Part shown: positions 44,555-63,150 of the stretch, piece by piece
Layout: every line of letters begins with the position of its first letter
Position numbering within the stretch: the first letter of the stretch is position 1
Assembly: GCA_963662545.2 (NCBI GenBank)
Contig: CAXXLL010000003.1
Span: 2,496,001 to 2,560,000 of the forward strand
Direction: 5' to 3'
From: Gammaproteobacteria bacterium
GTDB lineage: Bacteria; Pseudomonadota; Gammaproteobacteria; Ga0077536
Length of the DNA: 64,000 bases
Program-made: the position numbers and the translations under genes
Notes under the pieces: model-generated
Told to the model about the DNA's origin: nothing
Database searches by the model: none
What the model saw: the letters and a program-made list of their open reading frames with translations, nothing else

Positions 44555-44697
44555 AACATTCAATTGATATTTCCGCATAAATTCAGTCAGTTGCAATTTG
44601 TTTGTACCCATTTTGCAATTACTATGGCTCCATTCGACACGAAACTCACCGATTTTCAAACACTTAGACTGTATCGACAACAAGGTTTGCACCACGA

Positions 44698-45991
44698 ATG
44701 GCGAAAAAACGTTCCAGCTTCATCCGTGAGGAATACGCAATACTCGGCGGTCTGTCGAAAGTTCTCAAGACCAAACAAAGCAACGTGTATCAGCTGAGGA
44801 TGAGGGTTTCCAACGAAAAAAAATACCTCCGAGAAACGCTGAAGACCCGCGATCTGGATACCGCTTTAGAACGCACCGAAAAAAGAACACTAGAAATCTA
44901 CGCAAACATCAAAGCCGGCAAGAAGATCTTCGGTGTCCATCTGGGAGAACTGGTTGGCGAGTATCTCGAATATCGACAAGAGGACGTAGCGGTCGGAAAC
45001 ATCACGTCAGGACGGCTGGTCACGGTGTCTTCCCAACTAAAACATCTTCTCAAGTTTAAGGGCGACCATCTGCGTATCGGCGAGTTAGAGAAAAACTCTT
45101 GCTTTGACTATGCGAATTGGCGGCGAGGGTTAACGCCGTCTGTAAAAGACGTAACCATCCGAAACGAGACCGCAACGATCAACGCGTTAATGAGGTTCGC
45201 TTACCGCAAAGGGTATTCGCATTTCGAAACGTTTGAGTTCCGAAAACTTCGTATTCGAACGGAAGAGACAGATCGTCGAGACACGCTCACGCTAGACGAG
45301 TACGACAACCTCGTTCGGTATCTAAGAACTTGGTGTTCGAAGAAGGCAACGGGAAAGGACAAGGTAGAACGTCTAAAACGGCTTTTGGTCCGAGACTGCA
45401 TTTTGATTGCGACCGACACGATGTTGCGCGTCGGTGAACTGTGGCAGCTACGCTGGGCAGACGTGCTCGGGTACGAATCGATCGGCAACGAGCAGAATCG
45501 TGTCGACCTCGTAAAGATAAAGGTTCGTGCAGAAACGGCTAAGAATAGGAAGTCCCGGACCGTTTTGAGTCGAGGCGGCAAGCACCTGAAACGACTATTT
45601 CAGAGAACACAGTTCCGTGACGACGACCATTATATTTTCGCGATAGCTAACGGACGTAAACGGGCTCCTAAAGAGATCTGGTACAACGCATGGAAAGAAC
45701 TAATGTCAGGAATCGGTATCGATTACAAATCACGAAACCTGACGTGGTATTCGCTACGGCACTTCGGCATAACCTGTAGGCTCCGCGCGGGCGCTAGGGT
45801 ATTCGCTACGGCACTTCGGCATAACCTGTAGGCTCCGCGCGGGCGCTAGCGTTTTCGACGTCTCAAAACTCGCGGGGACTTCCGTGAGTTTCATCGATAC
45901 GCACTACGGTCATTTCGACGACGCCATGGCAAGAGAGGTCGCATTAAAGAACTTTCGATACGGGAAAGACGGAATCGCGATCAAAGATTGA
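44698..45991 (+). CDS. Tyrosine recombinase/integrase, frameshifted by 52-bp tandem duplication
   Basis: R(VGEL), K(NRK), YSLRH; without the 45798-45849 duplicate it continues LAGTS..HYGH to TGA at 45991. Confidence 0.88.
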
Positions 45992-46210
45992 GCGCTTCTA
46001 TTGCAAATACTTGCCGTTGGGCAACAAGGTTATCGTGATCTGTAAAGACTTGGACTCGTTCTTACAGATCGGCATCCCGGATTCAACGTTACCTGACAAG
46101 TGTCGTTGCATAAACACGGTACTGTGCACTCGGACTTAACGAGTTTTAAGGTCCGCTATGCCGCCGTAAGCAGCCACGTCATGCTGCACTGCAGGAGTCC
46201 GCTATCGACC

Positions 46211-46370
46211 CAGACTGTGTGAAAACTCAATAATACGACGTCGAAAGTAAAAAATTCCCCACCAGCATAGTAGTTAAGCACCATGAAAAGGGATCAGCAC
46301 ATCGCATTAATACACTTCCGAGTGTCGGTTCCCCACTTTTGAAAAACGCAAATAGTTTTCACACAGTCTG
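46211..46370. mobile_element. MITE (IS1182/IS5-like ends) in repeat core
   Basis: CAGACTGTGTGAAAACT...AGTTTTCACACAGTCTG flanked by GACC direct repeats. Confidence 0.8.
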
Positions 46371-46444
46371 GACCCTGAGCAGACATCACCCGTAGTTAGG
46401 CCGAGGAGGGAGAGCGGCAGTCAAGAGGTCGTGTTGAGCGCTTG

Positions 46445-46942
46445 TCAGACATCGCCATCGTCGTTTAGCTCCCTATCTACAGCTACAACGAATTCAGGTG
46501 AAATACCGGAGACGACCGGGCTTGCTTTTTGCCACTCCTGAATAGCCAAGGGATTCTCTTTGAGAACGCCAACCAAATGTATGACGCTTATTGATTCTTC
46601 GTATCCAGCCGTTCCGTGCACTACGCTTCTGTATGATGTTGCCGCTGCAAGGAATAAATCCTGAAAGCAGATAGAAAACAGAATCTGTTCATCTTCGGAC
46701 AGTTCTTCATCGTGTCGCGCGCGGACCATGATCTTTGCCAGTTCGGGAGTACCCAGTACGGCGCGGCGCCAGTCCGAATACATTCCTACCGCAGTGGCTG
46801 TTCCTTGTTGGAACGCATGTTCAGATGTTTCTTCTACGGCTTTTCGCGTCAATCGCGTCTGAATGGATAAGTAAATTAGAGTAATGATGATCGCTATTGC
46901 GCCAACAACCTCCGCAATAGTTCCTAACGCATCCCAGTTCAT
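46445..46942 (-). CDS. 'MNW' family single-TM protein 1
   Basis: MNWDALGTIAEVVGAIAIIITLIYLSIQTR. Confidence 0.85.
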   Translation of the reverse strand: MNWDALGTIAEVVGAIAIIITLIYLSIQTRLTRKAVEETSEHAFQQGTATAVGMYSDWRRAVLGTPELAKIMVRARHDEELSEDEQILFSICFQDLFLAAATSYRSVVHGTAGYEESISVIHLVGVLKENPLAIQEWQKASPVVSGISPEFVVAVDRELNDDGDV

Positions 46943-46957
46943 CTGTTCTCTCGTGAT

Positions 46958-47051
46958 GCCTAACGCTAAGTTAACCTGCGCTTGACGGCGGGCGACCGGA
47001 GCGGAAGCGAAGGAAGGGGGCGGTCACGTCAGGTTGCTCCGTTTGTTAGGC
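46958..47051 (-). repeat. attC-like site
   Basis: GCCTAAC..AACCTG.CG..TGAC.GC / GC.GTCACG.CAGGTT..GTTAGGC; complementary R boxes, long imperfect palindrome between two genes. Confidence 0.8.
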
Positions 47052-47082
47052 GGATGTTGCACTTCAAATGTGAATCTAAGCG

Positions 47083-47553
47083 TCAACGTATTTGGTAATC
47101 TGCGACTTCTAAGCCGTTAACAAACTGCTGAAACTTGGTGTCAAAATTTTTGCTTCTCAACGACCACGCTCGCTGGAGTCCTGGATGACTATAGATGGTC
47201 GAGTAATACTTAACCATTGCATCCCAACTACGAGCGTCAAGCGTTCATTCGTCGTGTTGTATATATGCTTCCTCCCAGGCCCGAAATACGCCTCCGGCAA
47301 GGATTAAGAACCGTGTTGTCTCCGCGTCGGTTAGGTCGTCGTAGCTATCAACCGAACGAGCCCATATTTCTGACATATCCTCGGTCGCGAATTTCGCAGT
47401 CACTTCGCGGAAGCCCACGGAGATGTCGTGCATTGCCGCGAGACGCGATTCCTTGTTCTGATTTCGTATCTGAGTAGCGAGATAGATAAGCGATACGATT
47501 ACTCCTCCGGCACCGAGTATTTCCGCAATTGCTCCTACAGCATCCCAATTCAT
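47083..47553 (-). pseudogene. 'MNW' family protein 2 with one in-frame TGA (47245-47247)
   Basis: MNWDAVGAIAEILGA..; continues in frame after stop TLDARSW..HPG..W..FDTKFQQFV. Confidence 0.8.
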
Positions 47554-47609
47554 AACTCAAATCCCCCGTTCTCGCCTTTTTTGCAGGATATCTGAGAAAA
47601 CTGGAACCG

Positions 47610-47760
47610 TGAATGACTGGAACTGGCCGACTGCCGTCGTCATCAGTTAACACGTCAGTGAACGCAACACCACGACCGCTTCCGAGCGCATTGCAGACGT
47701 AACCGAGAGCAGTGCTGCACTGCCGCGATCAGGCCGGAAACGACCCACAGCAGCCATCAG
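47610..47760 (-). repeat. Multipartite intergenic repeat (other copies ~46150, 48620, 50780, 52515 on minus; 55769, 56591, 59677, 59952, 61839 on plus)
   Basis: Consensus GGTCGTCAGCGGCC.AATCGCGGCAGTGCAGCA..GTCTGCAAT..CTCG.AAGCGGTCG. Confidence 0.85.
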
Positions 47761-47821
47761 CGCCAGCGAAGGAGGGGCGCTGTCAAGCGGGTTGGCTGCA
47801 GCGCCTTGGTATGCGGAACTT

Positions 47822-48300
47822 TCATCGATTTAATCCGAACATTAAAAAGACGAAGCTAAGGAATGCAATAGAAACCATCAAAATGAGGATGCATTGGAAT
47901 ACGAACGCTGAGTACGGCTCCATATAACCAAGCACAATCGCGCCTTCCACGACGACTGCCGTCATTCCGAGCAGGGCGAAAAGTCGCATGATCGAACGTT
48001 GGGGCTCGGGCAGCAGTTCAAGAAATAAACCGGAACGCAGCATAAACGGTATTGACACAACCCAAGCTATAACATGAGCAACAATTAGTACGCGGAATGA
48101 CCACTTCCACATATCGCCTTCATTCTCGGTAATAAGGGCGACAGTTCCCGGGATGAAGGAAGCGAACACTGCAAAAGCAGTAACGACTAAGAGCGTTGCT
48201 GCAAGCGCGACCTCCGGTCCGGTCAAGCTTTTGCCGCCGCGTAATTGTATAACCCCGATTATCCCGGTAAATCCCATAAGCGTTATCGCGATCTGCAAAC
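47822..48300 (-). CDS. Multi-TM membrane protein (paralog of 58170), 5' end disrupted
   Basis: QIAITLMGFTGIIG.IQ.RGG, FASFIP, W.WS.RVL. Confidence 0.75.
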
Positions 48301-48726
48301 GAGAACTCCTCGTCAGACGCAACGCGGCGCGGTTACGACGGCCGCGCTCGCGGTCCAATGCGATCGGTTAGTTAATGGAACATTCCTTAAGCCGGCAGTG
48401 AAGCCGTGGATCAGGGAGTTTTCGAGGCCACAGAGGGTCTCATGCCGTCATCGCTAAAGTCTGAAAGTCTGCTGCAATCGCGGGGTCCATCGCTTCCGCC
48501 TAACAATAAATGGTCATCAAATTGACGCGATTAATTGTGCCATTGTGACGCATAATTATCGGTGCAAACATAACTGTGGTTGCGGTAACCGGGGATGGCT
48601 TTTTTTGCCGAGAGCCGAAGCGCTCGGCTAACGTTCCGATGAACGCAACTCCGTGACTGCTTACGGGGGTACTGCAGACGTAATCTAGGGCGGTGCTGCA
48701 CTGCCGCGATTAGGCCGCTGACGACC

Positions 48727-49591
48727 CAGAGTGTGTGAAAACTCGGAATGGGGAATCACGTCGAGAACTCCTCGTCAGACGCAACGCGGCGCGGTTACGA
48801 TCCAATGCGATCGGGTTAATGGAACATAGAACGGCCCCAGAAGCCGGCAGTGAAGCCGTGGATCAGGGAGTTTTCGAGGCCACAGAGGGTCTCATGCCGT
48901 CATCGCGATGAGCGTAGCGAGTAGATTCATCACGCGTTTCATGTTGTGCACGTGCAGACTCATTTCCGTACCAACGTGTTTCAGCGTGCGCATCTGGAAC
49001 GAACCCATCACGATAGAGTCTCTCCATTCCGTCTGCGGCTATTGTCCGTTTTCGGGCAGCGGGGACACGCCGAACATGGTGCTTGCCTTTCTCCAGCGAG
49101 GCCAGCAAAGATTGAAGTCGCCTAGTAAAGAGGTTATAGCGCACGCCAGCTAATTAGTCAACTCCTTCTTATCCAGGTTGCGTTCGACAGTTGCGCCCGG
49201 TCGACCTACGGACATGTGATCAATTTTTTCGGATGCCGCTGCCATTCACCCCCGTATCCACGCTGGCAAACATTTTCTTCGAAGTTGCTCTGTGCAATTT
49301 GCTTGGGAAACCCGTAATCATTGTTAAACGGTTGCTAGAGGTTGCGGCGTTCCCCGCTGCCCGATCAAATCTAAATGCACAACGGTTCGATACCGGCGCG
49401 CGGGTTCGGTGAGGCGCGATTGGGACGTGAATTTTTAAATCGGAAAATGCGAGTTCTCCGTCAGACTTCCACGTTCGCGCCTCCCGTTCCGCGAGATTGA
49501 ACCCGGTTCAGGTGGGTTATGTACGTTGGATCAACGACTCCCCAGGACCGAAAGAGTGATCTTATCTGATGCAGAGTTTTCACACACTCTG
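48727..49591. mobile_element. TIR-bounded element (IS1182-like ends) in repeat core; interior scrambled
   Basis: CAGAGTGTGTGAAAACTC...GAGTTTTCACACACTCTG flanked by GACC direct repeats. Confidence 0.7.
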
Positions 49592-49739
49592 GACCCATAG
49601 CGAACGTCCGATAGAGTCCATTCCGTCGCGGCTATTGTCCGTTTTCACATGGTGGAGCGAGGCCAGAAAGATTTCCTAGTAAAGGCTAATTAAGGTTGCG
49701 GGTTCGGGACGACAATTTTTTCGGAATTCACCCCCGTAT

Positions 49740-50173
49740 CCACGCTGGCAAACATTTTCTTCGAAGTTGCTCTGTGCAATTTGCTTGGGAAACCCGTAAT
49801 CATTGTTAAATCGGAAAATGCGAGTTCTCCGTCAGACTTCGTTCGCACGGAGTGGGTTATGTACGGATCCGGGAAGCAAAAGCAGCTTCGAAAGGATTAT
49901 TCAGACTCTCTTTCTTCCATTGTGAGCCTAGCGAAGTATTACGAAACTCTTGGTGATATTGCAGCGGAAGCCGAGGATGTGGATCTTGAGCTAGCATTCG
50001 AACGATACCGCCAATCTTTTCTAATTGACGGGCGTAAACGCGTAAAAAGCAAAATAGATCACATCGCAAAGCGAGCGGGCAACCCTGAAGATACAGCTGC
50101 GAACCTTAGACCCGCACGAACACGATTCCGGACCTCAACAATCGAGTTCACGAAGTTTCTCCAGAACACCTAA
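49740..50173 (+). pseudogene. C-terminal part of nucleoside-deoxyribosyltransferase/TIR-like protein
   Basis: NIFFEVALCNLLGKPVIIVK...PSDF motif; 5' end missing. Confidence 0.5.
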
Positions 50174-50222
50174 CGCCAGGGTGGTCCATTTGTTAGGCGG
50201 CTGTTACATTTCACTTGGAAAT

Positions 50223-50678
50223 CTAAGCATCATTTAGCAGGTTTTCGATATAGGCTCTCATCGTACTCGACACATCTTCTCGAGCGCTCGTTCCCCACCA
50301 TTCTTGAACTCCTTTTGTGCCAAACAAAAACCGGAGGTTTTTGTCGCAGCCCGCTAAGATAGCCGGTGTTGTAGCCTCCGGCGCACCGACAAGCAGTTCA
50401 TAAACCATCATGCGATCTAACATCCAGTATGAGAAAGAAATTTTCTCTTCTTCTGTAAGCTGTTCGAAGCTTTCCTGACCTCTTTTGAGAACGCCAGCCA
50501 TATACTCACTTAATGGTCCTACGTTGGATTGCGACATTCGGTCACTCAGTGCAGCAAAAGTCTGTGCCTTGACCGCGCTAGTATTCTGGCGAATTTGTAG
50601 GGCCAAGAATATTAGCGATGCAACAACGGCGAGTGCGCCAATTAGATCGGCCCAATCTGCTATGGTGCCAAAATCCAT
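50223..50678 (-). CDS. 'MNW' family protein 3
   Basis: MDFGTIADWADLIGALAVVASLIFLALQIRQNT..G.ESFEQL..GVQEWW. Confidence 0.85.
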   Translation of the reverse strand: MDFGTIADWADLIGALAVVASLIFLALQIRQNTSAVKAQTFAALSDRMSQSNVGPLSEYMAGVLKRGQESFEQLTEEEKISFSYWMLDRMMVYELLVGAPEATTPAILAGCDKNLRFLFGTKGVQEWWGTSAREDVSSTMRAYIENLLNDA

Positions 50679-51060
50679 TGAATAGTCTCCTTAATGCCTA
50701 AAAAAGCGTAGCGAACGCACCGCATTAATAATAGAGGTGCTCTAGCGACCGCCTCAGGGGTGGCTACCAAGCCTGCGGGATGTCCGCACCTGGCCGACTG
50801 CTGCCGTACCCTCTCGACTCGATGCCTGAAGCTACTCGACGACCGCTATTGAGGGTACTGCAGACGTAATCTAGAACCGTGCTGCACTGCCGCGATTAGG
50901 CCGCTGACGGGGAACAGTCAGCGGCAGGCTGTCTCAAATGGCGTGAGCTGTTATCCGCGTAACTACCGGCAGGTTTATTTCCAGCTCGAAACACGAGATC
51001 ATCTTCGCCTAGCCGCTCCCAGTCGCGGCCGTCAATAAAACAACACGAGAGAACTGCACC

Positions 51061-51855
51061 ATGCCCCACATCAATCGCGACGGCGTCAAAGTCTATTACG
51101 AGAGTTTCGGCCAGGGTCTGCCCATCGTCTTCCTGCACCCGTGGAGTACCAACCGGTATATCTGGACGAATCAGTTGCTCGAGTTCGCGCGCAACCACCA
51201 ATGCATAGTGGTCGATCACCGCGGCCACGGCCTGTCCGACAAACCGGCCGAAGGTTACGGCATCGGCGAGATGGCAGCGGACGTGGTCGCCATTCTCGAT
51301 GACGCCGGGATCGACCGTGCGGTACTGGTGGGCAATTCGATCGGCGGCATGGTCGCCATGCAGACGAGCCTCGATACACCGGAACGCGTTATCGGCAATC
51401 TCATTGTAAGCAGCGCTACTAATTTCGGGGCGGATGCGCCGCCGGAAATGGCGGAAGCGATGCAGAAAGACTGGCGCGGTATGTTCAGCGGCCTACTCAA
51501 ATCCGCCGTCTCCGCTAAATCCAAGGCCGAACGACCGGAGATCCTCACGTATATGGAAGGCTGCTTCCGCGTCGACGACAATTTCACTGAAGGCGTGTTC
51601 TGGGCCAGCGTGGCCGATCCGGAGGGCGTGTTCAACTGGAACATCTCCGACCGGCTCAAGGACATCAAGCAGCCCACCCTGATCATCGCCGGCGAGGAAG
51701 ACGGCGCGACCACCCCGGCCCATAATCAATTCCTGGCCGACAACATTCCCGGCGCGGAAATCAAGATGTACAAGGACGTCGCGCACTTTTGCCAGTTGGA
51801 AAAGCCGACTGTCTTCAACGAAGACTTGCGAAACTTCATCGCCAAGGTCGCCTGA
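51061..51855 (+). CDS. Alpha/beta fold hydrolase
   Basis: DHRGHGLS, GNSIGG, GEED, AHFCQLEKP. Confidence 0.9.
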   Translation: MPHINRDGVKVYYESFGQGLPIVFLHPWSTNRYIWTNQLLEFARNHQCIVVDHRGHGLSDKPAEGYGIGEMAADVVAILDDAGIDRAVLVGNSIGGMVAMQTSLDTPERVIGNLIVSSATNFGADAPPEMAEAMQKDWRGMFSGLLKSAVSAKSKAERPEILTYMEGCFRVDDNFTEGVFWASVADPEGVFNWNISDRLKDIKQPTLIIAGEEDGATTPAHNQFLADNIPGAEIKMYKDVAHFCQLEKPTVFNEDLRNFIAKVA

Positions 51856-52084
51856 ATCCACCCTGTCTTAACCCGCGACTTCAGCCCGGACTTACCGGCG
51901 CCGAGGTCGCAAGCGGATCAGGTGGGCGGACACCGAGACTGATTAAGATCGAACGGTGCCGCATTTGATTAGAACCTATCCTCCCTGAATTTCAGTTCCG
52001 GATTGCGGAGCCTATTCCGACACGTCCGCGTGCGAACAGCAGCTATACCGTTTCAATCAACGAAACGTGCTGTCATTCCTGACA

Positions 52085-52500
52085 CCGAGGTGCCGGTCCG
52101 TCAATGGGTCGTGACCTTCCCGCATGCCTTGCGGTTTCTCTTCGCCAGCCGCCCAGGGGTCATGGGCCGGGTGTTGGCGATCGTCTACCGCACGCTGGCG
52201 ACACATCAGCGACGCAAGATGGGATATACGCACCGCCAGCACCGGCGCGGTCACCCTCATCCAACGCTTCGGCAGCGCGCTCAACGTCAATATCCACTTT
52301 CACATCCTGATGCTGGATGGTGTGTATGTCGCCACCGACAACCGACTCAGCATCAAGCGCGTGAAGGCACCCGACAAGGCCGAGCTCGAAGCCCTCGTGC
52401 GTACCATCAGCGAGCGCGTGGGTCGCCACCTCGAACGCGAGGGTCTGCTGGTTCGCGATCTGGACACGAGCTACCTCGCGCTCGAACCCCACGATGACGC
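52085..52500 (+). pseudogene. IS91 transposase internal fragment
   Basis: [15 protein letters not shown]; [21 protein letters not shown]. Confidence 0.85.
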
Positions 52501-53045
52501 AAAAAAACCTGGGCATGGCCGCTCATGGCCGACAGCCGTGGTCCTCGGTTAACACGTCACCGAACACTGCCGCACGACCGCTTATGAGGTAACTCCAGAC
52601 ATAATCCTTACCAGTGCTGCATTGCCGCGATAAGGCCGCTGAGCAGGGGGACGCTGACGCGCAATACAACGTGGGCAACATGTACCACAAAGGCAAAAGA
52701 GTTATGAGGGTCTACCTTCGGAATTAGCAGGTAGCGGCACCGGTCAGTGCCACTGATGTCCGATGCTGGAATGTGAGAACTGACCCTTTTGGTGACCTTT
52801 TGGATGACCGTGCACGCCCACGAACGCATGGAGGCCATCATCGACGCTGGCATCGGTGAGATCTCGCTGGTAAGCATCATGCCGGGCCTGCCGCAGGATA
52901 AGATACTTGATTCTTTGCGGCTCTTCGCCGCCGAGGTGATGCCGCAGTATGCGGAACCGGCGGTGAGTAAACTTCAACAGACCGGTTAGTCGCGATGCCG
53001 GGAGCTGAAGCGTGCGCCATTCGCTCGCATTCTTAGGAGGTAGCC

Positions 53046-53822
53046 ATGGACTTTACCGATAAGCGCATTGTGATCACCGGCTCGTCACGTGGCATCGGCC
53101 GAGCGGCGGCCGAAGTACTACTGGCGGCCGGCGCGACGGTCACGGTCAACGGCCGAACTGAGGCGTCGACGCGTGACGGGATCGCGGCAATGGGCGGTGG
53201 TGACCGATTGATCGCGGCGCCGGGCGATGTGGCGACCGTGGCCGGCTGCGAGGCGATCATCGGCGTCGCAGCCGAGGCCATGGGCGGGATCGACGTCCTT
53301 GTAAACGCCGCCGGCATTGCTACGTTCATCACTCTCGAAGACAGTACGGAGGCGCTGTGGGATGCGACCGTGAATACCAACTTGAAAGGCACGTTCTTCT
53401 GCTGTCGAGCGGCGCTACCGCATTTGACCGCATCCAAGGGCAACATCGTCAACGTCGGATCGGACGCGGGATTGATCGGGGAGGCGGGGCTTGCGGCTTA
53501 CGGCGCATCCAAGGGCGGCGTTATACAACTCACCCGCGCACTCGCCCTGGAGCTGGCGCCCGACATTCGGGTCAACTGTGTGTGCCCGGGCAATGTCGAC
53601 ACCGACATGCTGCGCCGCGACTACATCGATCAGGCCGACGACCCGGCCGAGGCGGAAGCCGAAATCATCGCTTCTGCGCCCTTGCAACGCATCGCTGAGC
53701 CGCTAGAGATCGGTAAGGCGATTGCCTACTTTGCGAGCGACGACGCGGTGTTCGCAACGGGATCGATCCTGTCGATCGACGGTGGCACAACCGCGTGTAA
53801 CAACGCAACGGGGGACGAATAG
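53046..53822 (+). CDS. SDR-family NAD(P)-dependent oxidoreductase
   Basis: TGSSRGIG, NAAG, YGASK, VCPG.VDT; AGGAGG RBS; luciferase-like monooxygenase fragments on both sides (52800-52989, 53838-54030). Confidence 0.92.
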   Translation: MDFTDKRIVITGSSRGIGRAAAEVLLAAGATVTVNGRTEASTRDGIAAMGGGDRLIAAPGDVATVAGCEAIIGVAAEAMGGIDVLVNAAGIATFITLEDSTEALWDATVNTNLKGTFFCCRAALPHLTASKGNIVNVGSDAGLIGEAGLAAYGASKGGVIQLTRALALELAPDIRVNCVCPGNVDTDMLRRDYIDQADDPAEAEAEIIASAPLQRIAEPLEIGKAIAYFASDDAVFATGSILSIDGGTTACNNATGDE

Positions 53823-54268
53823 GTTCTAAACCGATCATGATCCCGTTTTAAGTGCTCGACCTCGCGCCGATTGTCGCGGGGAGCGATGCGGCGTAGGCCT
53901 TTCGCAACTCGGTCGGTCTCGCGCAGCGCGCCGAACGCTGGGGATATCAGCGCTACTGGTTCGCCCAGCACCACAATATGCCCGGTATCGCCAGTTCCGC
54001 CACGGCGGTGGTGATCGGCTATCGCCCGCGGATAGCCCGTGGATAAGGTCAGTTCTCACATTCCGACATCAGCGCCATCTGCGCAGTGTAGGAATGTGAG
54101 AACTGACCCTTTTGGTCTTCTTTTGGTCTTTCGCAGACCCAAAGCGGAAGTTCGGGGCTAAAGGTGGCGAATTTTTATACTCACGTCATTAGCTCAAATA
54201 AATCTGTCCCTGAAGGCTCCCCACGAATTGAAGGAGAATTCACATAAAAAATAGCCATTTAGAAAAAT

Positions 54269-55653
54269 GGGTCTACGCGGATTCATGTGGGTAAATTCTG
54301 AATTAGACCAAGTGTAAACCATTGAAATCATGTAGACATTCAGAGATTTCGTATGGGGTGAAAGTGGTTTCATTTTGTGGGTAGGCTAAGGCCATGAAGA
54401 ATCCCAAGTCGATCCGAGCGCTGTTTGCGTTCCCTGGTTTTACCGCCGCATCGAAATTGGTGGGCATGTTTGGTGATCGGTATGCCCGTGTGATCCAACT
54501 CAAGAGGCGAAAAAAACAGCGATCTGTTCTCACTGTGCTCACCGGTGCCGCGGGCGTTACGACAAGAAGGTGCTGCGAGTACGAGACCTGTCAGTTGCCG
54601 GATGGCGAATCTACCTGGAGTTCGAACGCTGGCGTGTCAGTTGCCGGAGGTGCGGCGGCGTGCAGGTAGAACATCTTGACTGGCTGGCAAAGAACCCTCG
54701 CTATACGCAGCGCTTTGCCATGCAGGTGGGCAAGCTGTGCCGGGACATGCCGAACCAGGCTGTCGCCGAGAGGGAACGCCTGCACCACAGCACGGTGAAA
54801 GACCTCGATAAGCTGTACATGCAAAAGCAGGTTGAGCTGGCGGGCATGCCAGCACCCCGGGCCATCGGTATTGATGAGATCTCCATCCGCAAAGGACATA
54901 ACTACCGGGTCATCGTCAGTGACCTGGATCGGGGGCGTCCTATCTGGGTCGGTGGTGAAGGTCGCAAAGAGGCTGACATCGACCTGTTTTTCCAGGCATT
55001 GGGCGAGAACAAGAGCGCTCGCATCGAACTGGCGGCGATGGACATGTGGAAGCCGTTCCGTAACTCGGTCATGAACAACGCACCGCAGGCGCGGATCATC
55101 TATGACAAGTTCCATATCATGCGCCACCTCTCAAAGGCTCTCGATGAAGTCCGGCGCCGTGAATACAAACGTCTCCGCGGCAAGGACAGGAGTTACATCA
55201 AAGGCCAGCGATATACCTTGCTCTCGCGACGCGAGAACCTGAATCTGGATGGCAGACGAGCCCTGAAAAAACTGCTCCAGGCCAACCGGCGTCTGAACAC
55301 CGCCTACGTCCTCAAGGAAACCTTCGGCCAACTCTGGGACTACCGTACCGAGCGCGGCGCGCGTGCCTTTTTCGAGCGCTGGAAGGACAGTCTGAAATGG
55401 CAGCGATTGGCGCCGTATCGCAAGTTTGCTGAGCTGATTGAATCCCATTGGGATGGCATTGCTTCCTATTGTGATGCTAAGAATAAAGTCAGTCTTGGAT
55501 TGGTCGAAGGGGTCAACAACAAAATCCGGGTCCTGCAACGACGCGCCTATGGCTATCGTGATGAGGAATTCCTCAAACTGAAAATCATTGCGGCATTTCT
55601 TCCGCCACTACCCAGAAATGCCAATATCAACCCACACGTTTCCGCGTAGACCC
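54269..55653 (+). mobile_element. ISL3-family element; transposase 54394-55649 split by a frameshift at an A7 run (~54510)
   Basis: IRs GGGTCTACGCGGA / TCCGCGTAGACCC; IGIDE, MDMWKPF, YDKFH, EGVNNKI..RRAYGYRD. Confidence 0.92.
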
Positions 55654-55972
55654 AAACAATTTTGGAAGCTACGCGAGCATGTTTTCTCGAAAGATTTCCG
55701 AGAATTTGTAGCCTCGGTGGAACCGGGCGAGTATCTATTAAAGTGATCCTTGTTTGAGCATTAGCAGGATGTCCGGAAAGGGTCGTCAGCGGCCTAATCG
55801 CCGCAGCGCAGCACTGATTAGCGTTTTGTCTCCTATGCGCTCGGAAGTGGTCGTCCGGTAGCGTTCAGCGTCACGAGCATAATGAGCGGCGGCGGTCGGC
55901 CGATAGCGGACACCCTAAGGTCAGCGCCATCCGATATTCTTATAGTCCAGGAACCAAATAGGGGATCGGGCC

Positions 55973-56501
55973 ATGAACTGGGATGCTATCGGTGCTTTGA
56001 GTGAACTGCTCGGTGCAACAGCAGTTGTTGTGTCAATAATCTATCTCGCACTACAGGTGAGACAAAATTCGAGCCATGTCCGCAGTAGCGGGTATCAGAT
56101 GGCGGCTCAATCGGCAAATCACTTTTTGGAAAGTCTATCGGCGCACCCTGAGGCGTTGAAGGTTTTCCACGCGGCTCAGGAGTCCTATGACGGCCTAGAC
56201 GACGACGATCAACTCGTAGCTCGAACAGTATTCTTGCAACTGTTCATCTATTACGAAGCTTTGTTTTACCAGTATGAAGACCGCGTCGTGGATCTCGATA
56301 TCTGGGAGGTTTTACCAGTATGAAGACCGCGTCGTGGATCTCGATATCTGGGAGGGGCGAAGGAAGATGATGCTCAACCTCCTACAAATGCCAGGCGTAG
56401 CGTCATGGTGGGGAACCTGGCGACCAATCTTTGGCGCGAAATTCCAGTCGTACGTCGCGGAGAACATGGAATCACCGAGTGATTTGCATTTGACATTTTG
56501 A
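55973..56501 (+). pseudogene. 'MNW' family protein 4, frameshifted by 46-bp tandem duplication
   Basis: MNWDAIGALSELLGA..; 56263-56308 repeated at 56309-56354; PGVASWW..FQSYV in the second frame. Confidence 0.8.
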
Positions 56502-56751
56502 GCAGATCGGCATATCTGTTCGGGAAACGACGATCGTTAGTCGGCTATCCGACTCGACCTCGCATGCACCTTCGTCCCCCGCCAGCTAGCAATGACGGTA
56601 TTGGGTCGGCAGCGGCCTTATCGCGGCAGTGCAACGCTGTTCAAGATTAGGTCTGCAATCCTCTCGAAAGCGGACTCGGGCGGCTTGGAAGCCACGTACG
56701 TCACGGTCGCCGCAGCACCCCTATTATTTATGCTGTGCGTTCGCTACAGTT

Positions 56752-56851
56752 TCCTAACTTCTCAGTGGAATCAAATGGAACGGCATACAAACCGCGCGCC
56801 CGTATGTTCATTAATAACGGGGCAATATGGCCCGTACATTAGCTGTTAGGC
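56752..56851 (+). repeat. Degenerate attC-like site
   Basis: CCTAAC ... GTTAGGC immediately before gene 56868; internal pairing weak. Confidence 0.5.
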
Positions 56852-56867
56852 GGCAAGGGAACCTTCG

Positions 56868-57338
56868 ATGAATTGGGAAGCGGTTGGAGTAATTGTAGAA
56901 ACAGTCGGAACGATTGTTGTCCTTGTTACCCTAATTTACCTGTCAATGCAGATTCGACTAGCGCGTGAAGAATCGCAAGTACAGAGCACATATTCTTCGG
57001 TAAATCTATGGGCTAATTGGCGTTCACACTTAATCAACAACCCTGATATTAGTGAGCTTATAGAGAAAGCGAATGAAGGCCAGGATCTATCTAAAGCGGA
57101 AAAACTTCGAATTTCGACTTTTATGGACGAATTCATATTTACGTCCTATGCCTCCCACGCAACAAGTCAGAAAGGCAACCCACTATATACACGCGATGCA
57201 GAGGTCGAATATTTGGTCGGTTTTCTGGAAGCGAATCCAGGGTTGGAATCTCACTGGGAAAGGCTTCGGGATTATGTTGACGCGTGGGACCCCGAATTTT
57301 CGAAGAAGATAAGAATCCGGCGGGACGAGGTTGACTAA
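56868..57338 (+). CDS. 'MNW' family protein 5
   Basis: MNWEAVGVIVETVGTIVVLVTLIYLSMQIR; closest by eye to 46445 (WR..P.., NP...W....PEF). Confidence 0.85.
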   Translation: MNWEAVGVIVETVGTIVVLVTLIYLSMQIRLAREESQVQSTYSSVNLWANWRSHLINNPDISELIEKANEGQDLSKAEKLRISTFMDEFIFTSYASHATSQKGNPLYTRDAEVEYLVGFLEANPGLESHWERLRDYVDAWDPEFSKKIRIRRDEVD

Positions 57339-57608
57339 CGTGACATGGTCAGAATATCGGTTGGTTTCTCCGGGTGTGCGGCGCAGCCGCGTAGATTCAA
57401 AGTCGAAGTGCAACAACGCGAGCAAGACAGGATGTCCCAGACTTCGTTAAACACCCCGTCACCTATAAGTCGTTGGAGCGGTCGTGTTACAGCGGGCTTT
57501 TCTTCCGCGGCTGTCGCATTATCGCTTCAGAAAAGCGCACTGTAACGCGCCGCTCAACTTTGCACTATGCCGCAATCGTTCCATCTAGATTCTTACAGGA
57601 ACAAAACC

Positions 57609-58050
57609 ATGAGAAGAACCCCGCTAATCATTAAACCGGAAACTTATCAATCTCCATTGAATGTCGTAGGTACGAACGTAACAGTGCTCGCTTCAAAACA
57701 AGACACAAAGGGACAGGAATTCACGTATCAGTCCGGAGACAAAGGCATGGGACCTCCGCCTCATAGCCACGACTGGGATGAATCATTTTTCGTGATTAAA
57801 GGAAGCGTTGAAATCACCTGTGATGGAAGGACCGAACTGTGCACACCAGGCACACTTTTTCGTGCCGGGTGGAACGATACATGCGTTCAAATACGGCCCC
57901 GATGGCGGCGAAATGCTGGAAATAACAGGCTCCGGGAGCATAGCTGCTCAAATGTTCACGGCGCTCGACAATGAAGTTCCGCCAGGTCCGCCGAACATAG
58001 AAAAGATCGTAGAAGTAATGAACAGAAATGGGGTCACTGTGCATTCATAA
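57609..58050 (+). pseudogene. Cupin-domain protein, frameshift at T-run ~57856
   Basis: GPPPHSHDWDESF..G; VPGGTIHAF in the next frame. Confidence 0.75.
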
Positions 58051-58158
58051 TGCAGCATAACGGGTCGTTGGAGGCGGACGCTTGACAGTGGCATTCCCTA
58101 CGCCGCCGCTCCGTTCCGTCGCCGTCGCCGTCGAGTGCGGCTCATGGGAGCGTAAGGT
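58034..58158 (+). repeat. Degenerate attC-like site (another at ~58687-58780)
   Basis: GCATAAC right after stop codon, CGCTTGAC box, GC-rich imperfect palindrome. Confidence 0.5.
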
Positions 58159-58169
58159 GAACTAGAGAT

Positions 58170-58679
58170 ATGGCTGTACCGGAAGACTTCTATGTCATTG
58201 CTCAGATCGCGGTCACCTTAATGGGATTTACCGGGATCGTCGGTGCTCTTCAGACCCGCGGAGGCGCAGTACTCGACGAACGAGAGAAGTTCCATATCGT
58301 TAATCTGCTAACGACTTCGACGCTTGTACTTTTTCTTGCCTTTGTTCCGACATGGCTGCAGTCGCTTCCTGGCAGTGACGAGAACCTTTGGGCGTGGTCA
58401 ATTCGAGTGCTCTTGGCCATACACATTTGCGCTTGGATAATTGCTATCCCAACATTCCAACGTGGGAGCATTTTCTTCAATCAGAAATACCGAGCATTTG
58501 AGCGGATGGCTGGATTGACAGTCGCAGTCCTTGGCGTTGTTGCAGTAGGTGCCGAACTTCTAATCGTGGGGGGGCATTACACCGAGTATTCGGTCTTTCT
58601 CTACGAAGGGGTGCTGTTATTGTTTGTGGCTGTATCGGTGTTTAATTTTCTTTCGCTCCTGATAAAGCCGTCGAGATGA
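58170..58679 (+). CDS. Multi-TM membrane protein (paralog of 47822)
   Basis: AQIAVTLMGFTGIVGALQTRGG; ~5 hydrophobic segments. Confidence 0.8.
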   Translation: MAVPEDFYVIAQIAVTLMGFTGIVGALQTRGGAVLDEREKFHIVNLLTTSTLVLFLAFVPTWLQSLPGSDENLWAWSIRVLLAIHICAWIIAIPTFQRGSIFFNQKYRAFERMAGLTVAVLGVVAVGAELLIVGGHYTEYSVFLYEGVLLLFVAVSVFNFLSLLIKPSR

Positions 58680-58799
58680 ACCATTCGCCATAAAAGGCGT
58701 TCAACCTGACGCTTGACCGCGCGCTTCCTGCGCTGCCGCTTCGATAAGCCTTTATCGAGCACCGGTCAGCTTGAACGTTCGTGAAGTCTGCTATAGGGT

Positions 58800-59676
58800 G
58801 TGCGCCGTGCAAAGGCGGCGTTCTTCAGTGGGTGCAAGTCCCACCCGGCAACTGTCGCTCCAGCCGGAAGCAATCGGAGCAGTCATGGAGGTAACAAGAT
58901 GGCTGAAGCCTTCGGTGTAGAGGGTCACTAGGTGACTTGGCGAGTGTGCAGGCCGTAAGGTGAGTGAACGCTGAGCAAGCCTCGAAAAGGACGATGCACG
59001 TGCCGACCGGTCAACCCCTATCGGGAAGGCTGAAAGGGCTGGGGAAGCGAGCGATGAGCGCACCCAGTCGGCGTGCCGGGGTAGTGGCGATGGCATGTAC
59101 ACAGAGGAGAACGCGCGCAACACGGGAAGCCCGATGGCGTGGTCGGTCGTGGCGATCAACCGGAGACCGGTGACGGTCAGAGAGGGCGCTATGGGGTGGC
59201 GGAGAGGCCCGTAGTACTGAGGAAGCCGGGTAATGCTGGTGGAGGGAAGGGGCCTTAGTTCAAGACGGGCACTGAAAGCGGCAAAGCACAGGAGATTGGG
59301 GCAACCCTAGGCAACTCCGGTAAGGTGCGGGCGCGGTGGAAGGCGTCACATGTTGAAGCGAAGGAAGAACCCGGATTGCGATCTGGGAAGCGAATGCCCA
59401 CCCAAGTGGTGGCATTGGCGGTTGTGTGCAGAACGCTCGGTTCGTGCACGCCGGGATACACGGCCCGGTGTGGTGGGTCGGGTGAACTGCGGATGACCTT
59501 TCGTGTGCCAAGGCATGAGTCTTGTCCGAGAGCCGGATGCGGTAGTTCCGCCTGTCCGGTTCGATGAGGAGGATGTGGAAACGGAGTGATGGTCCGGCTA
59601 TTGAGGCACCGCCAGACGAAAGGGGCGGCAACAGATTGGCTGAACCTTAGACCACCGCGCCACATCCTTACTCTAC
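58800..59676 (+). ncRNA. Group II intron with RT ORF internally deleted
   Basis: 5' GTGCG; domain V GAGCCGGATGCGGTAGTTCCGCCTGTCCGGTTC; domain VI ending CTTACTCTAC; only a short RT N-terminal remnant (EAKEEPG). Confidence 0.88.
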
Positions 59677-59793
59677 CGTCAGCGGCCTAATCGCGGCAGC
59701 GCACACTAATTAGCGTTTTGTCTGCAATGCGCTCGTAAGCGGTCGTCCCGCAGCTTTCAGTGGAGCGTTAGCTGAGCAGGGCGGGTCTCGGCC

Positions 59794-59951
59794 TATTCTG
59801 TTGAAAAAGTCCGATTCGCCGTCGGTCGCGACGTGTGCAGAAAAACCGACCGCGTAGGATCGCCTGTAAGCGACGATCGGCACTCCGGGAATGGTTTAGC
59901 GACCCCCAAATATATCGAAATCGTATGCGGTACGACTTTTTCAACACAATA
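59794..59951. mobile_element. MITE (TGTTGAAAAA ends), related to 61690
   Basis: TATTCTGTTGAAAAAGTC...GACTTTTTCAACACAATA. Confidence 0.75.
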
Positions 59952-60240
59952 GTCCGTCAGCGGCCGAATCGCGGCGGTGCAGCACCGTTAGAGTTTACGT
60001 CTGCAATCCCCTCGTAAGCGGTCGTCGAGATGCTTCAAGCGTCGAGTTGAGAGAGCACCAATAAATCCACGTCTATCACTCCTTTAATCTCCTGCCGTCT
60101 GATTAGCAGGAGAAGGGTTAAACGTGGGTCAGTTTTGGGTGCAAATACCCGGGGCTAGTGGGTCACTTTTGGATGCAAATCTACAGATTAAAGGGTTCTA
60201 CGTGCCGCGCTAATGTCCCCGCAGCTTCACCAACCTCCGG

Positions 60241-60786
60241 TCACAATGCACAAACGCGCGGTTCCCAAACCGCGAGGAAACGCTCGAAGCCAATCCCAAC
60301 GGCAATGACATGGGCCAACTCAACGATTTCGGCGTCATTGAATTCGTGGCGCAAAAGCTCGAAGAAATCGTCATCGAGTCCTTCGGGTTCAATGCCGAGT
60401 TTCTCTGCAAACTTCAAGGCCAGCTTTTCACGACGCGTCAAACATTCGCTCACCTCATAAGTCCCAATCGCCGCGATCTTTTGTTTGGTTAGCTGCGGGA
60501 CGGGCGGCCGTGGGGTGGCCAAGCGTGGCACTGATGACTTCGCGATATACGCGGAGCAATCGTTGTTCTGCGCGATCTTCATTCGCACTAACTCTTTCAA
60601 GTCCCGCTCGAGTTTGCCGTTCTCCAACATATTGACGTAGGCAGCGAAAATGGGTTCAAACACTTCCTGCTTATGCGCAAAGATTTTAAGACCGTTGGCG
60701 TAATTTGAATCGAACTCGAACTTATCGACCAGCGATGCCATAGCCGGGCTTAGTTTGGTTTTATCCAAGGGGGTTGGTGCAGTCAT
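60241..60786 (-). CDS. AhpD/carboxymuconolactone decarboxylase-like protein (single motif Cys)
   Basis: LKELVRMKIAQNNDCSAY, REKLALKFAE, F.DAEIVEL. Confidence 0.85.
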   Translation of the reverse strand: MTAPTPLDKTKLSPAMASLVDKFEFDSNYANGLKIFAHKQEVFEPIFAAYVNMLENGKLERDLKELVRMKIAQNNDCSAYIAKSSVPRLATPRPPVPQLTKQKIAAIGTYEVSECLTRREKLALKFAEKLGIEPEGLDDDFFELLRHEFNDAEIVELAHVIAVGIGFERFLAVWEPRVCAL

Positions 60787-60841
60787 GACAGTCGGTCCTT
60801 TGTGTTGGAGACTCGTTGGAGAAATACCCGTTCTTTGCTGT

Positions 60842-61363
60842 TCATGCTTCTTCAGGCTTGAAGACTGAAAGCAGGCGGCCCCACCCGATACATACGCTGA
60901 TCACAATTGAAAGTTCGACAATCTCCGGCTCCGAAAACTCTTCGCCCAGCAGTGCAAAGAAATTGTCATCGATTGCCCGGTGTTCGATCCCCATCTTTTC
61001 CGCGAACTTTAGCGCGAGCTTTTCACGCCGCGTTAAGATCTCGCTAACTTCGAAATTTTCGATTTCTTTGATTTTTTCTTCCGTCAAACCCTTATCCATC
61101 ACCGATGGATATCGCAACTTTCGTCAGGTGAAGCAGTCGTTGTTATAAGCGATTTTGATGCGCATCATCTCCTTCAGCCGGGAGTCGACCAGGCCGCCTT
61201 CAAACATGTCGACGTAGGCCGTCCACATCGGTTCGACGAACTCCTGACTGTGCGCAAAGACCTTAAGACCCGCGTGGTATCCGGGATCAAACTTGACGCG
61301 ATCCACCAACTCCGCCATGCCGGGTGTCAGATATCGCTCTTCTATGGGTTCCAACCGTGCCAT
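60842..61363 (-). CDS. AhpD-like probable selenoprotein (CxxU)
   Basis: NNDCFT-TGA-RKLRYP in one frame; aligns along its length with 60241 paralog; hairpin 61093-61111. Confidence 0.8.
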
Positions 61364-61529
61364 GAATTCCTTCCAGGGGCCGTTAAGGCACCAATTTGTC
61401 AGGTGGCCGTATCCGAGTTGTGTATTTCTCGGAACGGAGAATGTGTCTCCTTATATAGCCTCTGGGTGGTGGATTTGGCAACTTGTTTAAGGCCAATGCT
61501 CATGCCGATTAGCCTAGATCCGCGAGCGA

Positions 61530-61628
61530 TGCATATTCCAGCCCAAGCCGATCACTCATTCCGGTGCAAGCCGATCACCCATTCCAGCTGATGCCGATCA
61601 CCGATTCCGGCTGATGCCGATCACTTTT
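61530..61628 (+). mobile_element. IS21-family end remnant (tandem GCCGATCAC repeats); another IS21-like end at 60120-60185
   Basis: TGCATATTCC then four ~23-bp units. Confidence 0.65.
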
Positions 61629-61689
61629 GAGTACGTGGGAGGATTTTGTGCCAGGTCTTGCCTTTTGCCATCAATGTCGGCTTCGGGTC

Positions 61690-61838
61690 TATTGTGTTGA
61701 AAAACTCCCTCAACAGATGGTTTAGCCAAATTTAGGGGGTGCTCAAACCATTACCTGAAGTCCGATCGTCGCTTACGCGCGATCCTGTGAGGTCCAATTT
61801 CTCGGAGCAATGGGCGAACCGAGTTTTTCAACAGAATA
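61690..61838. mobile_element. MITE in repeat core, GGTC direct repeats
   Basis: GGTC|TATTGTGTTGAAAAACTC...GAGTTTTTCAACAGAATA|GGTC. Confidence 0.8.
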
Positions 61839-61993
61839 GGTCGTCAGCGGCCGAATCGCGGCAGTGCAGCAATGCTAGAGGTTAGGTCTGCAATTCCCTC
61901 GTAAGCGGTCGTTTGGCTTCCGAAAGCGTCATTGATTGAACTGACTTCGGCTCGCGGCCATAAGGTAAACTGCAAGCCCGCGAGGTCTAATCA

Positions 61994-62323
61994 TTGGTCA
62001 ACTGCCGTAAATGCGGAGAGAGGTTGCCGTTCCGGAGTTTTCTGTTTTCTCCGGGTCTGTCTGTGGCGGATCTGAAATGCCCTTTCTGCCATCTCGTGAT
62101 GCGTGCTGGTCGGCAGAGTAAACAAACGATCTGGCTAGGAATACTGGCTGGCGGCATAGTCAGCGCGGTTGGTGCGCATTGGGCCTACTACGTGCAGGGT
62201 TGGAATCGCGGTTCCAGTGCCGGAGTTGTATTGGCCATTGCGATTATCGTTGGCGTGGCGCTGACATGTTATTCGTGGATCAAAGACGACTACGATGCGA
62301 ATACGAACTCAGCCCGCGAATAA
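61994..62323 (+). CDS. Small Zn-ribbon + 2-TM hypothetical protein
   Basis: CRKC..CPFC followed by two hydrophobic segments. Confidence 0.55.
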   Translation: MVNCRKCGERLPFRSFLFSPGLSVADLKCPFCHLVMRAGRQSKQTIWLGILAGGIVSAVGAHWAYYVQGWNRGSSAGVVLAIAIIVGVALTCYSWIKDDYDANTNSARE

Positions 62324-63150
62324 GGACCTAATCTCTCCAAAACCCATTAAACCGATTCGCCGCTAACTTCGCGTAACTGACCGTGTGCCGAATAGCAGTG
62401 CACTACTTCCCTCCGGAGGGAATAAATCTATGAGGAGCGCGGATGCTTGCCCCCTCTATCAAATTTGCGGAGGGGCTCTAGCAGCAGACAGCGGCGTCGA
62501 GATCGATCCCCACCCCCCGGGGGCCAGGGTTGCGACTTGGACACATAAAAATTGCGCCTAGGCGACAATGTTTGACGGTATTGATGACGGTATCTGGAAC
62601 AGTAACCACCGTCAGACCTATTAAATTCAATCGGTTAAACTGTGTAAGTATCTACAAGTACGTTAAGTACGATTGAGGGCAGCGGTCGATAATTTTCAGA
62701 TACGAATAATTTTCGGTAAAAAAAGCGTTCCCGCGGAAACGTAATTTTTGGCCGGGAGCAGGCCATTTTATTGAAAACACTGTTTTCAATAAAATGGTAG
62801 CGTGCTTAAGCGCCTTGCAAGAACTCGATTCGTGTACGGTTCCCGGGCACATCGGCGAGCCTTTGATCGCGGGCGGGTAAGTCAGCGTCGAGAGCTTCAC
62901 CGAGCGCGACGTAGGCGGCGCGCAAAAGGTGTCCCCCGATATCGGGCCAACTCCACCTGACAGTTCATCGTGACGACTTTTCTACCCGTCACTTTGCCCA
63001 GCTTATCTCGAGCGCAGCCATCGTAAACAGGCGGGCCGGCGCAGTCCTCTGCAGTCATACATGACCGCCGTGAAATGGCTTAGCATGTTCCGGATCGATC
63101 AAGATGGTGCACAGGAGGGAGAGCCAATAATGCCCGTCGCTTCGCAACCG

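Follow-up and report, generated by a model that had tools for sequence, protein, structure and literature searches.

The stretch analyzed in this study (the window, G000:C3:2496001-2560000) comprises 64,000 nucleotides (nt) of a 5.58-Mb genome in three contigs (G000, with contigs C2 and C3 cited below). Between positions 45992 and 62330 it carries an array in which cargo genes are separated by a multipartite repeat, here called repeat b, and accompanied by attC sites and other pieces of integrons. The original prediction for this region, made from the sequence alone, described single short genes alternating with attC-like hairpins and with a second kind of site. The alternation holds only partly, as the stretch also carries an ISL3 element, an ISCR fragment, MITEs (miniature transposable elements with inverted repeats), a group II intron and multi-gene host fragments. 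Comparisons involved two genomes of the same genus (G001 and G002, assemblies 89% and 95% complete) and one family member (G004). The public runs containing the window include sponge metagenomes, with no RNA run among those listed; assembled contigs of runs X1, X5, X8, and X14, from four studies, were compared with it. As far as the literature was searched (most subscription journals, ISfinder, and TnPedia lie beyond it), no publication describing repeat b was found and the repeat is undescribed. The feature is real and its anatomy well supported, while its motor is unproven.

Repeat b measures about 145 bp and consists of three 24-25-bp palindromic boxes at fixed spacing, box 3 being an inverted box 1. 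The left edge of the array (46041) is a terminal repeat of the IS481 family, part of an R end (the two types of element end, L and R, are described below). The array has the following features, given with their surroundings:

44502-44555: 5′ end of tadA, a 98% repeat of C3:933772-933825 beside a second tadA; likely island attachment site
44698-45991, plus strand: phage-type tyrosine integrase of the island, single copy (Pfam PF13102/PF00589)
46041-46217, minus strand: R end of an IS481-type non-autonomous unit, with a 27-bp terminal repeat (46041-46067), arm, 13-spacer box, 19-nt spacer and right half of box 1
46214-46371: multicopy MITE in the center of the R-end box 1, putatively IS1182-like
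46445-46942, minus strand: cassette gene of a 38-locus family, no Pfam/NCBIfam match
46958-47051, minus strand: complete attC with host-type ends and degenerate stem (45.8 bits)
47613-47757, minus strand: repeat b, complete (box 1, 33 nt, box 2, 35 nt, box 3)
47758-47818, minus strand: left half of an attC that breaks off within the variable stem and is joined there to box 1, at the outer edge of the box
47822-48490, minus strand: cassette gene containing an artefactual 157-bp insert (48296-48452)
48498-48600, minus strand: attI-like module B, putative attI, whose paralogs diverge directly after GTTAGGC
48595-48728, minus strand: repeat b with an insertion sequence (IS) in box 1
50168-50198, minus strand: collapsed host-type attC (23 bits)
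50223-50678, minus strand: cassette gene, same family as 46445-46942
50780-50912, minus strand: repeat b
51061-51855, plus strand: alpha/beta hydrolase cargo, opposite to repeat b and without attC
52085-52499, plus strand: fragment of an ISCR-clade (Y2) transposase, cut 17 nt from box 3
52515-52643, minus strand: repeat b; its presumed left half of box 1 lies at ~54136-54160, separated by a 1.5-kb insertion
54269-55653, plus strand: ISL3 with non-matching flanks, at the orientation flip of the array
55769-55913, plus strand: repeat b, complete
56592-56735, plus strand: repeat b with degenerate box 3
56736-56851, plus strand: attI-like module A, putative attI, ending in GTTAGGC
56868-57338, plus strand: cassette gene 1, behind module A
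57461-57570, plus strand: host-family attC (64 bits; z -4.06)
57566-58136, plus strand: cupin cassette with a degenerate full attC
58170-58780, plus strand: cassette gene and attC without R′, running into box 1
58800-59676, plus strand: group II intron without open reading frame (ORF) in the center of box 1 (RF02003, 100.8 bits; RF00029, 36.1 bits, below the cut-off of 40)
59677-60060, plus strand: two repeats b joined without cargo (left part of box 3, 160-bp MITE, right part of box 1)
61837-61961, plus strand: repeat b, box 1 of which carries a MITE; the gene after it (61994-62323) has an 86% paralog at C2:1629.7k

Anatomy and distribution of repeat b

The box consensus is an imperfect palindrome (GTCYGC-12/13 nt-GCRGHC). 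Nine copies of repeat b lie within 47.6-62.0 kb of the window, four on the minus and five on the plus strand. An nhmmer profile matched the genome 121 times at E ≤ 1 and the reversed genome twice, and a box-2 matrix (score ≥ 18) gave 113 matches genome-wide (three are exact duplicates of other copies) versus none in its control. The distinct repeat seen by the original prediction thus exists. Spacer 1 is 33 nt long in 95 of 99 measurable copies (11 of 110 were not measurable), and spacer 2 is 35 nt long in 69 of 74 (36 of 110 not measurable), with an identity of only 40-58% in spacer 2. These fixed lengths despite divergent sequence point to selection on geometry.

Whole repeats folded no better than shuffled sequences in all four folds of two copies (z between -0.86 and +0.51), and the mismatches in the arms of box 2 are fixed, without covariation. 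An Rfam scan of 45900-62500 at E ≤ 5 returned the group II intron as sole match, repeat b matching no family. Together, these three results make repeat b look like a double-stranded protein-binding site, and we regard its boxes as putative sites of this kind rather than hairpins. None of the 12 matches of an attC covariance model, built from 15 of the 33 attC candidates in G000 (the host-built model), coincides with a full copy of repeat b, whose consensus lacks the RYYYAAC...GTTRRRY ends. Rfam, folding, covariation, and the attC model rule out an attC-like hairpin or RNA. A XerCD/dif site was rejected as well: a dif consensus, with up to seven mismatches allowed, matched only C2:2180003.

Adjacent copies share their orientation in 91 of 93 pairs. 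The window holds one of the two exceptions, with the flip at the ISL3 element, for which no partner with swapped flanks was found among 19 ISL3 copies. Cargo genes face either way, 82 with repeat b and 65 against it. Using BLAST, repeat b was found in both same-genus genomes and in none of the 38 other genomes searched; searches of plasmids with repeat b and the R end gave chance-level matches only. A variant joint with another first spacer and an 11-nt box-2 spacer occurs in at least seven copies (among them G000:C3:923416-923526, C2:606700-606830, C3:388631-388754, and C3:933152). A strict 12-spacer box pattern matched four of 161 genomes of the phylum versus five in the reversed control, a count not above chance. 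Four distant Proteobacteria (L076-L079) contain single or paired 28-bp boxes with similar loop sequences, located between or just after genes; it is only the loop sequences and the neighboring boxes that suggest kinship with repeat b.

Proposed module exchange, IS481-type frame, and candidate recombinase

The same-genus genomes have modules in common with G000 that are 88-97% identical and lie in other neighborhoods, and the genes beside the repeats vary from locus to locus and from strain to strain. The two modules that G000 carries at C2:247053-250630 recur in G002 C26, where they lie at another locus with their order reversed. In G002 C119, the orthologous insertion site contains different, shorter cargo, and here the box 3 of the L end is joined to the right half of box 2. 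By our reading, orientation is conserved in about 14 of the 15 shared modules (no repeat b lies near the exception, G001 C9), which argues against a shufflon with segments in both orientations between inverted sites. Shared modules end in box 3 (n = 5), box 1 (n = 4, partly MITE-linked) or spacer 1/box 2 (n = 4); this tally is our own reading of a small sample, with IS-type elements set aside and BLAST ends that overshoot into similar sequence. Some breakpoints lie at MITE-free centers of box 3 where the flanks are ~45% identical (C2:76072/C3:929893). In the cargo-free joint of the window (59718-59997), the left part of box 3, a 160-bp MITE, and the right part of box 1 follow each other at the expected distance (279 = 117 + 160 + 2 bp). 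Judged from these sequence comparisons, modules change neighbors and order and keep their orientation, with breakpoints often at box centers. Captured ends are generally ragged: captured DNA other than attC, such as the ISCR fragment (52085-52499), stops at varying distances from the boxes. New cargo therefore seems to be taken up with ragged ends, whereas existing modules often seem to be exchanged at box centers.

A candidate enzyme is encoded by six IS91-like elements located in or heading the arrays of G000, each with an upstream tyrosine recombinase (Yrec, as at C3:6903-7832) and a Y2 transposase. All six left junctions of these Yrec-Y2 elements lie at one position of box 3 or at the right end of another copy. 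The entry point is 2 nt before the right arm, and these two bases vary on both sides, which fits the strand-exchange region of a tyrosine recombinase. In five other genomes of the family, each of the seven left junctions is preceded by half a box, of box-1 or box-3 type; five of these half-boxes rank in the top 0.15% of random 17-mers and two in the top 2%. Yrec thus evidently recognizes the box, as far as junction sequences tell, and is the best candidate for the motor of module exchange. A crossover between box 3 and box 1 at the Yrec position would excise a module and leave a hybrid such as the one in the window. The phage-type integrase of the window was rejected for this role, being a single copy outside the R end and tied to the tadA repeat. 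The boxes also attract other elements: ends of IS or MITEs occur in box 1 of 41 of 108 copies, and the ORF-less group II intron is present in boxes three times (58800-59676, C2:1634300, and C3:14622-15155), at the same box-1 nucleotide. Group II introns related to that of the window reach very high depth in sponge runs.

Part of the arrays is framed by ends that share a 27-bp terminal repeat (19 matches in the genome, none in the control). The L end consists of the terminal repeat, a second repeat, a 13-spacer box, 21 nt, and box 3, the R end of box 1, 19 nt, a 13-spacer box, an arm, and the terminal repeat. The R end at 46041 had been overlooked by the original prediction. Six L/R pairs enclose 1.3-33 kb and 12 of 113 copies of repeat b. 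Their flanks are 7-bp target duplications that agree in register at 7/7, 7/7, 6/7, 6/7, 5/7, and 3/7 positions, and those of a framed unit in a metagenome agree at 4/7; the flanks have T at position 3 in 16 of 18 cases and A at position 5 in 14 of 18. The terminal-repeat pattern was present in eight of 401 genomes of the class. In three of the seven besides G000, it delimits a complete or fragmentary gene for an IS481-type transposase, of which the one scanned passes NF033577 (270.8 bits). Autonomous IS481 copies have an exact 7-bp duplication in two of three measurable plasmid records and in two of three cases in G004, which also contains a box-bearing mini-element. For the prokaryotic IS481 family, target duplications of 2-15 bp, mostly 6, are given in PMC10045372. 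With terminal repeats in common and the same duplication length, the frame is an IS481-derived non-autonomous element. The cognate transposase is intact in G004 and stop-ridden in G001, was not found in G002, and in G000 is reduced to a remnant of 51 residues. A 968-bp element of L end, gene, and R end occurs in two metagenome contigs, its gene belonging to the family of the window cassettes; the terminal-repeat pattern matched no viral contigs, three metagenome contigs, and two genome contigs. Both in L025 (G004:C1:4617677-4618707) and in the window (45991-46041), an R-type end has an unrelated integrase gene terminating 30-50 bp outside it, which may reflect target preference. The terminal repeat also recurs in two Bdellovibrio metagenome-assembled genomes (L034:3453 and L035:8027), where none of the nearby ORFs listed encodes a transposase.

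A framed unit thus runs from the L end through cargo and any number of segments composed of box 1, 33 nt, box 2, 35 nt, box 3, and cargo to the R end, with 7-bp target duplications; the cargo includes attI-like sites with cassettes, ISCR scraps, and host genes. We hold the scales to be evenly balanced on whether repeat b is the joint of a modular gene array, partly framed by IS481 ends, whose modules are likely exchanged by a tyrosine recombinase at the boxes. The same even weight goes to a site-specific mechanism as such, Yrec being the enzyme in most of that share. The wider proposal, a second and integron-independent cassette system in which the IS91-like Yrec recombines the 24-bp boxes and shuffles modules including mini-integrons while IS481 ends carry arrays between sites, is put forward more tentatively, at appreciably less than an even chance. 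Under the evenly weighted reading, an IS481 transposase acting in trans would have moved the framed units, the boxes would serve as double-stranded protein-binding crossover sites, and Yrec or a relative would excise and re-insert modules from box 3 to box 1. New cargo would first be acquired with ragged ends, and the host IntI could still add cassettes at captured attI-like sites. The window would be the end of such an array, situated in an island at tadA and broken at ISL3. Under the wider proposal, the similar single boxes of distant Proteobacteria would be traces left by this machinery.

Several observations weigh against a box-specific exchange by Yrec within an IS481 frame. Yrec was not found at E ≤ 1e-60 in G001 and G002, which have arrays, and the five other family genomes with Yrec have zero or one strict box-2 match; given this lack of co-occurrence, Yrec may be a mere parasite of the boxes. 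The cargo-free joint could be a deletion between two MITEs because its 2-bp flanks differ, several breakpoints in box 1 coincide with multicopy MITEs, and captured DNA stops at various points, as far as ~35 nt outside the boxes. Spacer 2 shows strong internal linkage, but there is none across box 2 and none within spacer 1 either, and the latter would be expected of homologous exchange as well. No recombination was observed, and no circles were seen in assembled contigs. As for the frame, G000 retains the transposase remnant only, no L end to pair with the R end at 46041 was found in the window, nor a matching one elsewhere, the largest arrays have no IS481 ends at their borders, and only the 12 copies of repeat b mentioned above lie inside paired ends.

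Some of these observations agree with an alternative that we consider unlikely, though a serious competitor, namely that no dedicated recombinase exists and the repeats are hotspots where homologous recombination or gene conversion acts on box 1-spacer 1-box 2 and on MITEs, with the Yrec-IS91 elements, MITEs, and intron as parasites of palindromes. The missing linkage inside spacer 1, the four breakpoints in spacer 1/box 2, the MITEs at box-1 breakpoints, the arrays without detectable Yrec in G001 and G002, and the use of the boxes by at least three unrelated kinds of element all speak for it. It is difficult to reconcile with the MITE-free breakpoints between flanks of ~45% identity, with the joining of the L-end box 3 to box 2 in G002 C119, and with the strict spacer lengths over divergent sequence, which imply a geometry under selection.

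Distinctly improbable is a second alternative, in which repeat b itself would be a 145-bp MITE with boxes 1 and 3 as terminal repeats, pairs of which would mobilize the DNA between them like composite elements, the arrays growing by adjacent insertion. The inverted relation of boxes 1 and 3 with symmetrical outer edges, the mixed orientation of cargo genes, and the fusion of attC halves to the outer edge of box 1 agree with this scheme. The clustering and nearly uniform orientation of the copies, the missing reciprocal attC right halves after box 3, the position of exchanges inside rather than outside the boxes, and the half-repeats built into L and R ends do not.

Integron pieces carried as cargo

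No IntI is encoded in the window, as originally predicted, and no complete integron (intI adjoining attI) was found in it. The two IntI genes of G000 (C2:996723 and C3:1527239) are ~1 Mb distant or on a different contig, and elsewhere the genome also contains large host arrays of attC sites. IntI was not found in the assemblies of G001 and G002, though both have repeat b arrays. A cluster of attC sites lacking an integron-integrase (CALIN) is defined by at least two attC sites without neighboring intI (PMC4889954). Under the host-built model, the window falls under this definition with two sites, 57461-57570 and 46958-47051, which lie on opposite strands and 10 kb apart, with weaker ones beside each.

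The former, the best attC of the window (64 bits), had escaped the original prediction, whose own candidates vary in quality. The site at 46958-47051 scores well on the minus strand, yet folds no better than shuffles (z 0.27), and 50168-50198 is an attC from which most of the middle has been deleted. Weaker are 58055-58158, a marginal match (14.4 bits, E 0.054), and 58687-58778, which lacks the R′ box and has a non-significant score (8.8 bits) with better folding than shuffles (z -3.46). The left half at 47760-47818 aligns with other attC sites without matching the model, and 56752, also without a match, is part of an attI-like module. The two attI-like modules, A and B, follow box 3 and end in GTTAGGC; their copies diverge right after GTTAGG and resemble the 3′ end of the host attI, so that both modules are putative attI sites. 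Copies of module A are present at C2:1628.9k and in G002 C119, the latter differing after the crossover motif. We read the block at 56.7-58.8 kb as an attI-like site with three cassettes, the last of which is truncated in its attC. In the window, the attC of the cupin cassette is full. The paralogs of this cassette (C3:908k and C3:357k) share its starting point at the attC crossover, but their own attC breaks off within the stem and is joined to box 1. A promoter and terminator scan of 55650-58820 gave results no better than shuffles.

The claim that attC halves run directly into repeat b stands for the fusion at 47760, which is spanned by contigs of X1, X5, and X8; at 58780 a group II intron lies inside the box. 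A dedicated point at which repeat b would cut attC sites finds no support. A left arm of attC precedes box 1 in five of 110 copies (control rate 0.6%), three being cut at the same nucleotide, and no more than two of 110 have a corresponding right arm after box 3, neither convincing; the captured ends are ragged. Insertion of repeat b into an intact attC was rejected, no reciprocal halves being found. The original prediction named three findings that would speak against it, namely repeats scattered independently of cassette boundaries, invariant flanking gene content across strains, and attC-like sites failing the models; none of these was encountered outright. Its suspected second gene-capture system survives in the form of repeat-delimited modules that are not bounded by attC and contain integron-derived DNA; an attC array (CALIN) as the primary structure is not supported.

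The attC sites of the array are passengers, i.e., whole, collapsed or cut integron cassettes, some of them behind attI-like sites. The gene at 46445-46942 belongs to a family with 38 loci in the genome, of which 18 are near repeat b and 16 near host-type attC. Its proteins of 150-165 aa have a hydrophobic N-terminal stretch and are encoded in the window at 46445-46942, 47245-47553, 50223-50678, 55973-56501, and 56868-57338; the members scanned gave no Pfam or NCBIfam match. A decayed CALIN served in trans by the host IntI and later peppered with an unrelated repeat would agree with the two clear attC sites and the collapsed one, the IntI genes and large attC arrays elsewhere, and the gene family common to both array types, but is very improbable and largely refuted as organizing principle (it is true locally for 56.7-58.8 kb and 46.4-48.5 kb), given that host-type attC matches occur at only five places across 88 inter-repeat segments, that cargo orientation is random with cassettes in short blocks bounded by boxes, and that G001 and G002 have arrays and no IntI was found there.

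Related systems and further observations

Functionally, the system resembles integrons and pdif arrays but belongs to neither. The pdif modules of Acinetobacter plasmids, which are moved by XerCD, are flanked by inversely oriented, symmetrical 28-bp sites and strung in arrays. The modules described here likewise lie between inverted symmetrical sites in arrays, but the box sequence is unrelated to dif, G000 has a normal dif-like site (C2:2180003), and each joint is made up of three boxes connected by fixed linkers. Neisseria dRS3/NIME arrays and BIME/REP mosaics are built of palindromic units with interchangeable linkers and attract mobile elements; unlike these, repeat b separates whole gene modules, keeps one orientation, and is fused to transposon ends. 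Passenger-carrying non-autonomous IS are a familiar concept (tIS, MIC). IS91-family elements with an upstream tyrosine recombinase are known as the ISShvi3 type. The six G000 copies have the same two-gene layout, but are located at one box position rather than at attC or a tetranucleotide, and moving other DNA is a candidate role here. One such element next to an attC is reported in PMC9229058.

Integrons and CALINs (PMC4889954) resemble the arrays in having short genes between co-oriented sites; attC- and attI-like pieces, IntI elsewhere in the genome, and one shared cargo family add to the likeness. They differ in that the organizing site here is a repeat of three boxes with neither hairpin signal nor attC-type ends, that cargo orientation is random, and that modules may hold several genes or gene scraps. 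The frame shares TGT...ACA termini (PMC10045372), a common terminal repeat, and a target duplication of fixed length with IS481-family elements, and passenger genes without an internal transposase with non-autonomous derivatives such as TIME-COMPs (PMC4133298 and PMC13367494). Unlike in such derivatives, the ends here carry built-in boxes, L differs from R, and the interior is extendable (1.3 to 33 kb) rather than one fixed passenger.

The textbook example of a platform on which genes are stockpiled and reordered is the integron. If the proposed system is true, it would be a parallel platform with its own site, swallowing integron pieces and riding on borrowed IS ends, and would be invisible to attC-based tools. 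It would explain several hundred kb of variable genome in a sponge-associated lineage and assign a role to the additional, long-unexplained recombinase that IS91-like elements carry. A defined site, a candidate enzyme, and mini-elements make the idea directly testable.

The two tadA copies (44048-44555 and G000:C3:933357-933825) are 91% identical and have a 54-bp 5′ repeat in common; one lies before pncC-recA and one after guaA, and the copy at C3:933772 heads another repeat b array. Both loci may derive from one island that was later split by rearrangement and now lies 1.6 Mb apart in the assembly. An empty tadA site was not found in the relatives: in G001, tadA stands at the beginning of a contig, G002 yielded none, and the G004 locus does not include guaA. 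The integrase gene follows tadA in the window, and the array region begins at its stop codon. The reading frame of the integrase is broken by a 52-bp tandem duplication (45746-45849), likely an assembly artefact; contigs of X1 and X14 end at 45745. Assembly errors are also represented by the 157-bp insert at 48296-48452, bypassed by contigs of three of the four runs, and a 46-bp tandem duplication at 56263, bypassed in all four, and contig comparison identified 48750-49570 as a garbled multicopy IS.

Three ORFs resembling carboxymuconolactone decarboxylase (60067-61625) lie between IS-like ends cut into box 3, with low or zero depth in two of four runs; the low depth at 60.1-61.3 kb in two runs was given no weight as evidence. 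Exact multi-kb duplicates shared between contig ends and arrays (G000:C2:2584917-2591134, C3:8971-13429, and C3:909987-918197) represent recent duplication or assembly overlap. Outside the array, a tRNA-Ser(GCT) gene (36411-36501) near a large primase-like ORF (30207-34858) suggests a second island, and 27135-29524 contains four copies of a 35-44-bp repeat (TGCGCGATAA core) unrelated to repeat b.

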